This document shows, in pieces, positions 23,404 through 28,569 of a stretch of DNA of 28,569 nucleotides. The translations under genes were made by a program, and so were the position numbers. Under the pieces are notes generated by a model, which saw only the letters and a list, made by a program, of their open reading frames with translations, did no database searches and was not told the origin of the DNA. Within the stretch, counting starts at the first letter, position 1; each line of letters opens with the position of its first letter. Source of the stretch: a virus (taxonomy: Duplodnaviria > Caudoviricetes). Location: positions 1 to 28,569 of IMG/VR virus record IMGVR_UViG_3300030330_003094; one strand, 5' to 3'.

Positions 23404-23432
23404 ATTATAGCACAAAAAAAGGAGGGTGTTAA
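23404..23432 (-). promoter_or_regulatory. Sigma70-type promoter TTAACA-N17-TATAAT
   Basis: -35 at 23427-23432, -10 at 23404-23409. Confidence 0.7.
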
Positions 23433-23438
23433 CCCTCC
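23414..23438 (-). terminator. Rho-independent terminator ending the DUF4278-like operon
   Basis: GGAGGG-TTAACA-CCCTCC followed by T7 on the minus strand. Confidence 0.85.
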
Positions 23439-23694: not shown

Positions 23695-23859
23695 TCACTT
23701 GTTGTAAGTGTGACCACGATAGCAGAAAGTACCATGTACTTCGTCAACACCTTGCTTGCACTCAAATTTAACGCCACGATAGGTGGTCATTGCGATTTGA
23801 GCGTCGTGAAGTGCTGCTGCCTTCTCGATTTGCTTCTTGATGAGAGTTAGTGTGTTCAT
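23695..23859 (-). CDS. DUF4278-like small protein with two YRG motifs
   Basis: Hand-translated MNTLTLIKKQIEKAAALHDAQIAMTTYRGVKFECKQGVDEVHGTFCYRGHTYNK; AGGT Shine-Dalgarno. Confidence 0.8.
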   Translation of the reverse strand: MNTLTLIKKQIEKAAALHDAQIAMTTYRGVKFECKQGVDEVHGTFCYRGHTYNK

Positions 23860-23901
23860 TTGTCGTTACCTGAAATACTAGGGATTTTTAGCCCCGTTCC
23901 T

Positions 23902-24066
23902 TCAGTCGTTTGCGTCCCAGTAACACTCAGGTTCGGTTGCTTCCCTTACGGTCTCAACCAACTCAACCTTTACCTTGGGAGGTAAGGATTCATGTTTAGC
24001 AATTCTAAGCATAATAGCATCAGAATCCTGACAACTGAGTGTAGAGTATAGAAGTAATTCTAACAT
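23902..24066 (-). CDS. 54-aa small protein inside aptamer 2 (C-x35-C)
   Basis: Hand-translated MLELLLYSTLSCQDSDAIMLRIAKHESLPPKVKVELVETVREATEPECYWDAND; the last codons are aptamer nucleotides. Confidence 0.75.
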   Translation of the reverse strand: MLELLLYSTLSCQDSDAIMLRIAKHESLPPKVKVELVETVREATEPECYWDAND

Positions 24067-24101
24067 GGGATGAACGCTCCGTTCCGCGACTTACTTGCGT
24101 C

Positions 24102-24302
24102 CTATGTATACACGCCGTTACATTCACCTGGTACTTTTGACTTAAGATAAGCGATCAGACTCAACTTTGACCGAAGGTCAAGGTTTGGATCTAACCGAAT
24201 TTCCGTAGATCGTTGTAACCACCTTTCACAAGACATATGCCAGTCGTAAGGATTGGCGTCATTATGATGGGCAAGGGTGAATGCCAGCAGCAGTGCTAAC
24301 AT
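24102..24302 (-). CDS. 66-aa small, possibly secreted protein inside aptamer 1 (C-x35-C)
   Basis: MLALLLAFTLAHH...MSCERW...VPGECNGVYT; hydrophobic N-terminus; spans exactly the P2 loop. Confidence 0.75.
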   Translation of the reverse strand: MLALLLAFTLAHHNDANPYDWHMSCERWLQRSTEIRLDPNLDLRSKLSLIAYLKSKVPGECNGVYT

Positions 24303-24321
24303 TGGATGAACGTACTAGAGT

Positions 24322-24350
24322 ATTATAACTCTTATACTTTATTTAGTCAA
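24322..24350 (-). promoter_or_regulatory. Sigma70 promoter TTGACT-N17-TATAAT with an embedded late promoter TAAATA (24340-24345)
   Basis: -35 at 24345-24350, -10 at 24322-24327; predicted start site near 24315, a few nt before aptamer 1. Confidence 0.85.
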
Positions 24351-24355
24351 GTGCT

Positions 24356-24390
24356 TGTATCAACCACTACAAAAAGTTCGGTTTGATACA
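24356..24390. promoter_or_regulatory. NtcA-type boxes: perfect TGTA-N8-TACA (24356-24371) and imperfect GTT-N8-TACA (24376-24390)
   Basis: TGTATCAACCACTACA matches the GTA-N8-TAC consensus and lies just upstream of the -35 element. Confidence 0.65.
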
Positions 24391-25781: not shown

Positions 25782-25953
25782 GTAGGACTTGAGGGAAAGT
25801 TGATCCCTGTCCAAACATATCATAAAATTCGTTTCTGGTAAAATCTTCATCCAAGGTAAAAACCTCAAACTCTGCACCAGTCAACTCCATTACTTGCTTC
25901 ACTTTATAGCAGTATGGACAGTTTTCTTTAGAGTAGATTTTATAGTTCATCAA
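25708..25953 (-). CDS. nrdC: Glutaredoxin (NrdC-like)
   Basis: CPYC active site, TFPQV, LGGCVD. Confidence 0.93.
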   Translation of the reverse strand: MMNYKIYSKENCPYCYKVKQVMELTGAEFEVFTLDEDFTRNEFYDMFGQGSTFPQVLHGEEKLGGCVDTIKFLRQKQVIKS

Positions 25954-26528
25954 TCAAAAAAGAATATGTGAAATAAACGTGAATCTTCAATAGTCTGTCC
26001 AAAATATTTAGATGCAGCATGGATATTTTGAGCATCAAAAATAAACAGTCTATTGAAAACGTTACCAATGCTATCTATCAGGTCGAACTTGGTGGAATCA
26101 TAAAACCCACCATCAAATGCGGTTCCTATATTAGCATCAGATGATTTCCTAGCACCATTCTTACTAGCAAATAGTGATGTGCCACAGTCGTATGGCGCAT
26201 CAGGCGTCAAGTATATCATAGCAGCCCAGGTTTGTCCATCATGATGATAGACAAGACTATCCTGAGCAGTGCAATATTGAAACTTACCACACATACCATG
26301 AGATTCCCACTCACAGATCTGTATACCCATTATCTTTTCAAATGCTTCCTTGGTTCCAGGCAAAAAATATTGATGTTTAGTCCTACAACCTTTATAATAG
26401 TCCTTTTCCTCAACAAACTCTTGTTTTAAGGCAAAGTTTCTTACCGCCATTGGGTCTGCATAAAAGTTATCCACAACCCAGGTGGTCATCTGTGGTTTTC
26501 TATTCAGTTTTAATGGAACAAATCTCAT
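25950..26528 (-). CDS. 2OG-Fe(II) oxygenase-like protein
   Basis: VVDNFYADP, HxD (HHD), WAAMIYLTP, GTSLF, FNRLFIFD...H, RL..IFF: double-stranded beta-helix motifs. Confidence 0.75.
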   Translation of the reverse strand: MRFVPLKLNRKPQMTTWVVDNFYADPMAVRNFALKQEFVEEKDYYKGCRTKHQYFLPGTKEAFEKIMGIQICEWESHGMCGKFQYCTAQDSLVYHHDGQTWAAMIYLTPDAPYDCGTSLFASKNGARKSSDANIGTAFDGGFYDSTKFDLIDSIGNVFNRLFIFDAQNIHAASKYFGQTIEDSRLFHIFFFD

Positions 26529-27625
26529 GAGTTTTCACAGGCAATACTATGCAGATACTTACCATATCCACCAGAGTCAATGTAGAAGTTTGTATTGACC
26601 AAGAAGTAAAGATCAGGGAATGGAATGGTTCTTTCTGGATCAACAAGACGTTCTGTCTGCATCTTCATCATCTCATAGTCACCAAGTTCATTATAACACT
26701 CAGCAAGTCCTACGATACTTTCATTGCGACGTGGGCACCAGTCTTCTGCCTCAATAAAGAATGAAATGGCTTTCTCAAACTCTTGACTCTTACGATACAT
26801 CTCACCAATACAATAGAGACTCATATAAATCATCTCATTGACGAATGGTTCTTCAATATTCTTGTAGTTGTGCACCCTATCAAGATAGTTTTCAAAATAA
26901 AAGATAGAGCGTCTAGCATATTCTTTGGTATGAGTCATCCCAAGAGGATAATCACCCAGGTTTACTGCATCATAATAACTCTTACCAATATACCAAAAGT
27001 GATATGGGTCTTCCAAAAGTTTACCACCAGCAACTTGAGTCTTCTCAAGTTCTACAGCGTCCACAAGAAACTTATTCGGGTCTTCCCAGGTAACACCATC
27101 ATTGGTAATAACGTGTCTGAACCCAGGAGCTAGGTTAAATGCATTATGTTGAGCACCACTACGAAGATGAACAGTCTCGTGACGACGATCATGTTCAAAA
27201 TACCAGTCTAACTTAGCATTCCAGAACCAAGTCCTGTAGTAGATAGAACCAGCACTTCTTGCAGTGATATTGAAACACTCAAAGTTTGTATCATTGATAG
27301 GAGACCAGTCAAAGTCATCATCAACTTTTAACTGCTCATCAGCATCCATACGAAGAATCCAGTCACATCCATGCTTAGCGTTAAGAGCAGTCTGTAGTGT
27401 ATGGTCTCTGTTTATTCCAGGATAATCCCATTCATGGTTGTATGTAAACCCAGGAATGTCTTTATCCTTAAAGAAGTCTTCAATAATACTCTGAGTTTTA
27501 TCATTACCATTGCACTGAATGACCCAATAGTCAATGTATTCATAACAAGACTTGAGCATCCGTTCAATACAATGCTCCTCATTCCCAACCATTGCGTTGA
27601 GACATATCTTTGCTTCTTTTTTCAT
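26525..27625 (-). CDS. Glycosyltransferase family 2 with C-terminal TPR repeats
   Basis: ICLNAMVGNEEHCIERML, DWILRMDADE (DxD), RHE, and TPR-like helices. Confidence 0.85.
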   Translation of the reverse strand: MKKEAKICLNAMVGNEEHCIERMLKSCYEYIDYWVIQCNGNDKTQSIIEDFFKDKDIPGFTYNHEWDYPGINRDHTLQTALNAKHGCDWILRMDADEQLKVDDDFDWSPINDTNFECFNITARSAGSIYYRTWFWNAKLDWYFEHDRRHETVHLRSGAQHNAFNLAPGFRHVITNDGVTWEDPNKFLVDAVELEKTQVAGGKLLEDPYHFWYIGKSYYDAVNLGDYPLGMTHTKEYARRSIFYFENYLDRVHNYKNIEEPFVNEMIYMSLYCIGEMYRKSQEFEKAISFFIEAEDWCPRRNESIVGLAECYNELGDYEMMKMQTERLVDPERTIPFPDLYFLVNTNFYIDSGGYGKYLHSIACENS

Positions 27626-28569
27626 ATCGAAAGGATTCCGGGCAAACGAGTTTCATTTTTGATAGCAACTAACCAGGCAGATACAACTGGAATATTGGGT
27701 GCCATCTCCCACGTATCTAGACGATAACTCTGGAAACGAATGTCTTTGTTTCTAATGTATCTTGCTTTGCTTGCGTCTGTGTAATACCAGAAACTATGTT
27801 CGTTCCAGAAACTTACATGAGTGGGGTCTTGCCATGCTCCTCTACCGTCTGTAGAAGGCACCTCAATGAATGCCCAACCACCATGTGCAAGAACACGGTG
27901 TATCTCCCTCATCGTCTTTACAGGGTCTCTCAGGTGCTCAATCACATGACTGGCGTTGAGAACACCTACAGAGTTATCTGGTAGAGGAATACCATCATTC
28001 AAGTCACAGGTGATGTCAGCGTCTTCCTGATCGATGGTGATGTATCCAGGTCTTCCATCAATACCACCACCCATATCGACCATCATGAGGTCACGGTGCT
28101 TAGCATCATACTCAGCTAGAGCAAAAGCATTCTCTCTAAAGATCTCTACCGTCTTGGTCTGTATCTGAGCGTTTCTTTCAAGATAAGTATTATCTCCAGT
28201 GATGCGATACACATACAATGGTTTCTGAATATGATGCATCTTGGTATTCAAGTATGTGCGAACCATCAATTCATGGTCATCACAAATACTTAAGTCTTTA
28301 TGTCCACCCAGTTCACGATAGACTGAAGTTCTCCAAGAACGAACATGGTCTGGAGCATACCAAATGAAACCAATACTATGACTAGTTGGTTCCCAAGTTT
28401 TCATAACCGTAAGGTCTTTACCTTCGTGGTTATATTTGTAATGTTTCCATCCATGCTGAGCATTGTATGGAACAAAGTTGTCATCAAGAATAGCAGAGTC
28501 ACTATATACAAACCCAACCTGTGGATCTTGATATGCTTTGTTCAGTTCCTCAAGACAGTCTGGGGTGAT
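27622..28569 (-). CDS. GT2 glycosyltransferase fused to a class I SAM methyltransferase; 5' end outside the window
   Basis: Frame stays open to the window edge (ITPDCLEEL...VGFVYSD). GT2 motifs YRELGGH, DDHEL, LYVYR; then VDMGGG, LPDNSV, ASHVIEHL, EIHRVL..GG, DPTH. Confidence 0.85.
   Translation of the reverse strand: MTPDCLEELNKAYQDPQVGFVYSDSAILDDNFVPYNAQHGWKHYKYNHEGKDLTVMKTWEPTSHSIGFIWYAPDHVRSWRTSVYRELGGHKDLSICDDHELMVRTYLNTKMHHIQKPLYVYRITGDNTYLERNAQIQTKTVEIFRENAFALAEYDAKHRDLMMVDMGGGIDGRPGYITIDQEDADITCDLNDGIPLPDNSVGVLNASHVIEHLRDPVKTMREIHRVLAHGGWAFIEVPSTDGRGAWQDPTHVSFWNEHSFWYYTDASKARYIRNKDIRFQSYRLDTWEMAPNIPVVSAWLVAIKNETRLPGILSI

Follow-up and report, generated by a model that had tools for sequence, protein, structure and literature searches.

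The leader of a small transcription unit in a marine cyanophage genome carries two glutamine-I (glnA) cores on the minus strand, and comparison of homologous sequences indicates that these almost certainly pair crosswise, one inside the other, rather than standing in tandem. Taken as a whole, the leader is probably a nested glutamine-I pair that likely binds two glutamines, one at each end of a shared P3 helix, and likely acts as an ON switch for a downstream gene encoding a DUF4278-like peptide. The topology is well supported, with both-side changes among homologues at five places (the shared P3, the outer and inner linchpin pairs, and the inner and outer P1); ligand binding and regulation we infer. 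The arrangement is apparently a widespread, undescribed architecture of a known riboswitch class.

Genomic setting and layout of the element

The window, i.e., the whole analysed stretch of 28,569 nt, is the 28.6-kb virus record IMGVR_UViG_3300030330_003094 and carries T4-like cyanophage genes on the minus strand; the element region is matched best by phages of Synechococcus and Prochlorococcus (423 records). An NtcA-type box and a sigma-70-type promoter open the unit, five small ORFs follow, and a terminator-like hairpin closes it (Table 1). The sequence of the unit suggests a transcription start near 24316-24313, and a TAnnnT peak is found 13-14 nt before the element in homologous leaders. 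The candidate NtcA-type box, defined by the consensus given in PMC6212724, lies about 48 nt ahead of this inferred start, and 211 of the 273 homologous 90-nt leaders contain such a box, compared with a mean of 6.8 and a maximum of 14 after shuffling. Most of the unit is spanned by metatranscriptome contigs from four studies; these contigs derive from relatives, and neither strand nor level is readable from them.

A short inverted repeat, TGTATCAA ... TTGATACA (minus strand, around 24390-24355, spanning 24386-24390 to 24356), has the NtcA-type box in one of its arms and may represent a second half-site or a hairpin. The upstream part of the window (25950-28569) holds a 2OG-oxygenase-like ORF and glycosyl- or methyltransferase-like ORFs, labelled by eye. 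The last small ORF of the unit (23587-23429) belongs to phrog_6192 and shares a TYRG motif with ORF3.

Table 1. Coordinates of the nested element and its transcription unit in the window
Feature	Position	Strand	Basis or remark
Candidate NtcA-type box GTA-N8-TAC	24357..24370	-	sequence; 6 nt upstream of the -35 hexamer
Sigma-70-type promoter TTGACT-17-TATAAT	24322..24350	-	11/12 consensus matches
Outer P1 5' arm CGTTC (C1 = 24312)	24308..24312	-	pairs with 23895-23899
P2a 5' arm	24304..24306	-	pairs with 24100-24102 across ORF1
ORF1, 66 aa, in P2a loop	24102..24302	-	phrog_6471, E 8e-31; stop overlaps P2a 3' arm
P2a 3' arm and outer junction C21-G22-C23-A24	24096..24102	-	C23a = 24097 pairs with G60b = 23894
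E-loop 5' half AGTA	24092..24095	-	alignment A1; 24095-24092 with 23903-23901
Shared P3 5' strand AGTCG	24087..24091	-	compensatory variants
Inner permuted P1 hairpin: G54, GAACG, GAG loop, CGTTC	24072..24085	-	G60a = 24079; joint arm changes
P2b 5' arm	24067..24070	-	pairs with 23915-23918 across ORF2
ORF2, 54 aa, in P2b loop	23902..24066	-	phrog_504, E 2e-26
P2b 3' arm and inner junction, without E-loop	23909..23918	-	C23b = 23912 pairs with G60a = 24079
Shared P3 3' strand CGACT	23904..23908	-	compensatory variants
E-loop 3' half GAA (23901-23903), G54b, outer P1 3' arm GAACG (23895-23899), G60b	23894..23903	-	
Anti-ribosome-site strand, predicted	23905-23900	-	overlaps the E-loop 3' half
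Partner of anti-ribosome-site strand, predicted, overlapping ORF3 ribosome site	23870..23875	-	free-state fold
ORF3, 54 aa, DUF4278-like (IF17-like) peptide	23695..23859	-	phrog_545
Two further small ORFs after ORF3	23687-23592, 23587-23429	-	ORF list
Intrinsic-terminator-like hairpin, end of unit	23421..23438	-	sequence

A first-pass annotation of this DNA had proposed two interlocked aptamers with a shared P3. All of the motifs it named (AGTA, AGTCG, GAACG-GAG-CGTTC at 24084-24072, CGACT, GAA and the last GAACG) were found on the minus strand. Its span of 23895..24102 encloses the other motifs but ends about 200 nt short of the first CGTTC and the P2a 5' arm (24312-24304). The nested genes and the expression platform described below are additions to that proposal.

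Covariation of the shared P3, linchpins and P1 arms

Homologue sampling was pattern-driven, and some motifs are thereby fixed in the search patterns. A first parse resolved 408 of 495 stretches (62 were without a core, 13 without a 3' arm and 12 without a 5' arm) into 294 unique split elements; a larger parse resolved 693 of 877 stretches into 444. Among the 294, a nested ORF is absent from 91, located in P2b in 133, in P2a in 20 and in both loops in 50. Alignment A1 comprises 55 rows, all ORF-free elements (55 of the 91).

The complementarity of AGTCG and CGACT had been put forward as the basis of the shared helix. A 5-bp complement is weak evidence by itself; that the pairing exceeds chance follows from the homologues, in which P3 pairs 1, 2, 4 and 5 are all intact in 288 of 294 unique elements, compared with a shuffled mean of 242.6 and a maximum of 251. 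Both-side changes occur at five of eight pairs in A1. In variants among the homologues, G-C is replaced by A-U at pair 5 and A-U by G-C or C-G at pair 1; a longer form with two internal mismatches has G-C instead of U-A at pair 8. The further claim, that a P3 is out of reach for either module alone, is borne out in the window; relatives with a long P3, such as S-PM2, can be drawn with a 2-bp mini-stem, a register that the end-anchored P3 test left unscored.

The P1 arms of the window are identical, so that P3 alone cannot distinguish nesting from a tandem joined by a loop-loop helix. A simple tandem, in which each core keeps its own P1 and at most a loop-loop helix forms between them, corresponds to the published pseudo-cooperative picture; a single sequence cannot decide against it, and 9 unique elements from phage contigs have P3 hairpins of their own and are true tandems. 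The decisive comparison comes from the elements in which the two models differ: own-module pairing was found in none of 123 linchpin-informative and none of 63 P1-informative elements, which largely refutes the simple tandem and leaves it scarcely credible for this leader.

The first of these contrasts concerns the pair between positions 23 and 60, which in glutamine-I (G23-C60) forms upon ligand binding (PMC11477058, PMC5393176) and has C19:G41 as its glutamine-II counterpart (PMC6698751). The outer linchpin, 23a-60b, is Watson-Crick in 439 of 444 unique elements and the inner one, 23b-60a, in 420 (5 broken versus 24), and all four G/C combinations are found. Crosswise pairing accounts for 120 of the 123 informative elements. 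In A1, the nested model pairs the linchpins in 100% and 92.7% of rows, and the tandem model in 43.6% and 41.8%. The inner pair is swapped from C-G to G-C in 37 unique elements, in several P3 backgrounds. Independent pairs on a tree of the downstream gene agree for the outer linchpin in 6 of 6 cases (p 0.03) and for the inner in 5 of 5 (p 0.06); this tree is based on a 135-nt stretch of an adjacent gene, the independence of the pairs can be overstated through recombination, and five pairs cannot give p 0.05. The few apparent outer-linchpin mismatches are explained by partial duplication of the 3' strand (P3 end, E-loop half and P1 arm), as observed in L103, L109 and L518. In L545, L568 and L587 the A6-C21 junction pair appears as G-T, possibly a further covariation.

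The P1 arms behave in the same crosswise manner. Pairing of the first CGTTC with the last GAACG, as predicted for the outer P1, is supported by joint C-to-T and G-to-A changes in 9 of 9 unique elements, probably a single lineage. The permuted inner P1 likewise shows the joint CAACG/CGTTG change in 9 of 111 long-enough module-2-anchored loci and a one-sided change in none; overall, 71 unique elements carry it. All 63 P1-informative elements are crosswise, the outer arms not following the inner change in a targeted scan that required both inner changes, so that co-occurrence was tested by the module-2-anchored scan only. Across 224 long-enough loci of that scan, 207 have a matching module 1 upstream, 12 a variant module 1 and 4 an inner-loop insertion, with 1 unassigned; module 2 alone was seen in none of the 224. 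Taken together, these compensatory changes are not explicable by a tandem fold, and they bear out the original picture of an outer P3 capped by a second, permuted junction.

Covariation supports the outer and the inner three-way junction (P1, P2, P3). The P2 arms pair over 140-240 nt, and in ORF-bearing elements the first three pairs are intact in 70 of 70 cases for P2a (shuffled mean 63.1, maximum 67) and in 182 of 183 for P2b (shuffled mean 141.7, maximum 150). The unconstrained minimum-energy fold of the window leader (24316-23890, 427 nt) is the nested one (z -1.92, with 3 of 100 shuffles equally stable); its centroid contains both P1 and both P2 helices, with P3 absent.

A gene or gene remnant occupies the inner P1 hairpin loop at L131:850-1450 (S-B43), both arms being retained, and similar insertions are present in L565, L588, L645, L669 and L862-L872. 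We take these inserts to be homing-endonuclease-like genes or their remnants. The inner P1 loop is thus a third RNA loop that accepts gene insertions.

Relation to known glutamine riboswitches

Pocket residues C1, G2, G22, C58 and G59 are present in both cores; the inner ones are invariant in A1, some of them being fixed by the search patterns. The E-loop that the first-pass annotation had split between AGTA and GAA was confirmed at P3 for the outer core, with GAA or AAA in homologues and AGTA invariant in A1, though fixed by the search patterns. It does not extend to the inner core, which has no E-loop and instead places an A-rich strand opposite one C. The inner core is therefore not a canonical member of the class, but probably works like glutamine-I.

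A search of the window with Rfam returned no match, and the element is missed because each P2 loop holds a whole ORF. Five of eight ORF-free homologues passed RF01739 in the nested parse (39.6-46.4 bits versus 35), and in each of these alignments, which extend from the first 5' arm to the last 3' arm, the second core is treated as an insertion in P3. Single modules of homologues score weakly with RF01704 (up to 28.1 bits, cut-off 33). These scores, together with the overlap of ORF2 with the 3' strand, could speak for glutamine-II-type pseudoknot aptamers or for motifs kept by protein coding only. Either is very improbable, considering that all motifs are kept in ORF-free elements and that the linchpin swap alters the encoded residue. 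A reading of AGTCG/CGACT as the glutamine-II pseudoknot was dropped, since just 4 of 294 elements have a complement of the P3 strand in their 3' tail.

The nested element shares the P1-P2-P3 junction, the AGUA/GAA E-loop (in its outer core), the pocket and the 23-60 linchpin with glutamine-I (RF01739; PDB 5DDP; the Synechocystis gifB leader, PMC6212724); a tentatively DUF4278-like gene downstream and a predicted release of the ribosome site are further resemblances. It differs in that P3 is capped by a second, permuted core instead of a loop, one core drawing its strands from two modules, and in carrying whole genes in the P2 loops on phage DNA. Tandem glutamine riboswitches, of which 157 doublets and 4 triplets have been filed as pseudo-cooperative (Sherlock 2022, PMC9481103), also have two cores per leader; theirs are serial, whereas here neither module folds alone. 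Some of the catalogued doublets may be of the nested form. Glutamine-II (RF01704; PDB 6QN3; PMC6698751) has the same pocket and long-range pair and works without an E-loop; strands are swapped between molecules in its crystal and a two-piece RNA binds, whereas the exchange is fixed here within one chain. Glutamine-II uses a 3'-tail pseudoknot, which the phage element lacks. The c-di-AMP (ydaO) and tandem glycine riboswitches have other ligands, other folds and no genes in their loops, the glycine aptamers being serial. They share with the phage element the provision of two ligand pockets per expression platform (PMC9481103).

Binding sites, nested genes and predicted regulation

Judging from its conserved features, the outer site very probably binds glutamine. 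For the inner site, whose G60 sits in a 3-nt hairpin loop, binding is somewhat less assured yet still probable, as the inner linchpin covaries, the corresponding pair is ligand-dependent in glutamine-I and the pocket residues are conserved. The chief alternative is a nested fold in which only the outer core binds, the inner one being a structural P3 cap or a duplication relic, like a single long-P3 switch. The missing inner E-loop, the more frequent breakage of the inner linchpin, the homing-endonuclease-like insertions in the inner P1 loop and the counting of the element as a single aptamer by Rfam are all compatible with it; the invariance of the inner pocket (with the reservation about search patterns) and the recurrent swaps of a ligand-dependent pair are not readily so, and we regard outer-only binding as rather unlikely.

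ORF1 and ORF2 belong to phage protein families without assigned function and are under purifying selection (pN/pS 0.32 in 29 comparisons and 0.39 in 91, respectively). A paralogous relationship between the two families was supported only weakly (probability 7.5%, E 0.005) and is not claimed. The final codons of ORF2 cross the inner junction and P3, and its stop codon lies within the E-loop strand, a position shared by 168 of 181 ORFs. A ribosome-site-like GGAG, formed by a G and the GAG inner loop, precedes its start by 10 nt; in the window's group, the GAG loop is associated with an ORF in P2b (128/7/1/23, p 1.5e-20), and in the freshwater-type G23a group ORFs are retained with GAT loops.

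Given this linkage of the GGAG loop to the P2b ORF, and the ORF2 stop lying inside the anti-ribosome-site strand, the two sites could bind independently, the outer one switching ORF3 ON and the inner one switching ORF2 OFF, with translational coupling at the ORF2 stop dominating ORF3 output in ORF-bearing elements. This overlaps with our preferred reading and departs from it in denying both the coupling of the sites and sole riboswitch control of ORF3. Both cores are kept in the 91 of 294 elements that have no nested ORF, so the inner site cannot exist for ORF2 alone, and the GAT loops of the freshwater-type group also stand against it; we consider independent action improbable.

Under the nested two-site model, ORF3 is likely the regulated gene. 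Its product matches PF14105 with E 0.003 and 18.3 bits, under the cut-off of 25.3, and the YRG motif is present in 252 of 254 downstream ORFs. In the absence of glutamine, 23905-23894 would pair over the ORF3 ribosome site; the alternative helix over this site covaries (A with T 54:0, G with C or T 54:30, p 6e-17). Once glutamine is bound, 23905-23894 would be captured in the outer core and the site left accessible, a mechanism also postulated for gifB of Synechocystis (PMC6212724). In the bound model the ribosome site is cheaper to open in 198 of 208 cases, a difference that is partly built in, as there was no control constraint. Glutamine probably switches ORF3 ON.

At the inner core, glutamine would tie up the GGAG before ORF2 and reduce ORF2 translation. 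The two pockets are plausibly coupled through P3, and positive cooperativity between them is conceivable, though the balance tips slightly against it. Translation of ORF1 or ORF2 would open up the sensor structure and thereby compete with sensing; as both loops contain translated ORFs, the full fold may form part of the time in vivo. The most elaborate version, a strand-swapped permuted double riboswitch with cooperative head-to-head pockets, the downstream glutamine-synthetase-inhibitor-like gene ON and the nested gene OFF, is a speculative combination that we think unlikely to hold in full. If true, such a switch would provide most T4-like cyanophages with a sharply responding gauge of the nitrogen status of the host.

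Previous descriptions, distribution and possible origin

Parts of the element have been recorded before. The second module of S-PM2 was entered alone as a glnA RNA with a 2-bp P3 (Weinberg 2010, PMC2864571), and the S-CREM1 paper lists a 99-nt glnA match, its two cores unremarked in the accessible text; this match is a compact nested element, the ORF-free one at 164232-164330 of S-CREM1. McCown 2017 (PMC5473149) counts two glutamine aptamers in two cyanophage genomes and calls phage riboswitches rare, and the Melnitz paper describes single phage glutamine riboswitches. The available portion of Sherlock 2022 (PMC9481103) has no wording for a nested or interdigitated arrangement. Within the literature searched, a partial set, no description of nested glutamine cores was found. 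Published alignments, as far as their accessible parts go, treat such cores as separate sensors, and ORF-bearing copies escape standard scans. The fold would represent natural strand swapping and circular permutation, a two-pocket sensor made from a duplicated aptamer, and it suggests that cyanophages monitor the glutamine of their host and control an IF17-like peptide accordingly. In the ORF-free versions of about 85-105 nt, stoichiometry, cooperativity and structure are directly testable.

A scan with the central core gave an estimated ~1000 viral stretches, and the 3' module is estimated to occur in thousands of stretches of viral contigs; parts of the element are matched by 440 records of cultured phages, almost all of them named as cyanophages. 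Of 401 genomes from the order to which the Synechococcus bin belongs, 2 gave matches, one of which also contains a T4-like phage gene and the other of which has phage-like genes at the locus; no host-chromosome copy was shown among these 401. Copies in cellular assemblies (L121, L124-L127 and L497, from Synechococcus, Nonlabens and Euryarchaeota bins) appear to be phage contigs that ended up in cellular bins, and a gene for a T4-like single-strand binding protein occurs in two of these genomes.

The nested form may have arisen by duplication, followed by a symmetric swap and then by loss of the inner E-loop, this order being hypothetical. Such a route fits the ordinary tandems and three elements, L278, L442 and L483, which may be intermediates between the tandem and nested forms: each carries a pair of full E-loops, lacks a P3 of its own and forms 6 of the 8 cross pairs. 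Together with L386 and L494, they are symmetric or near-symmetric, with P3 cross-paired.
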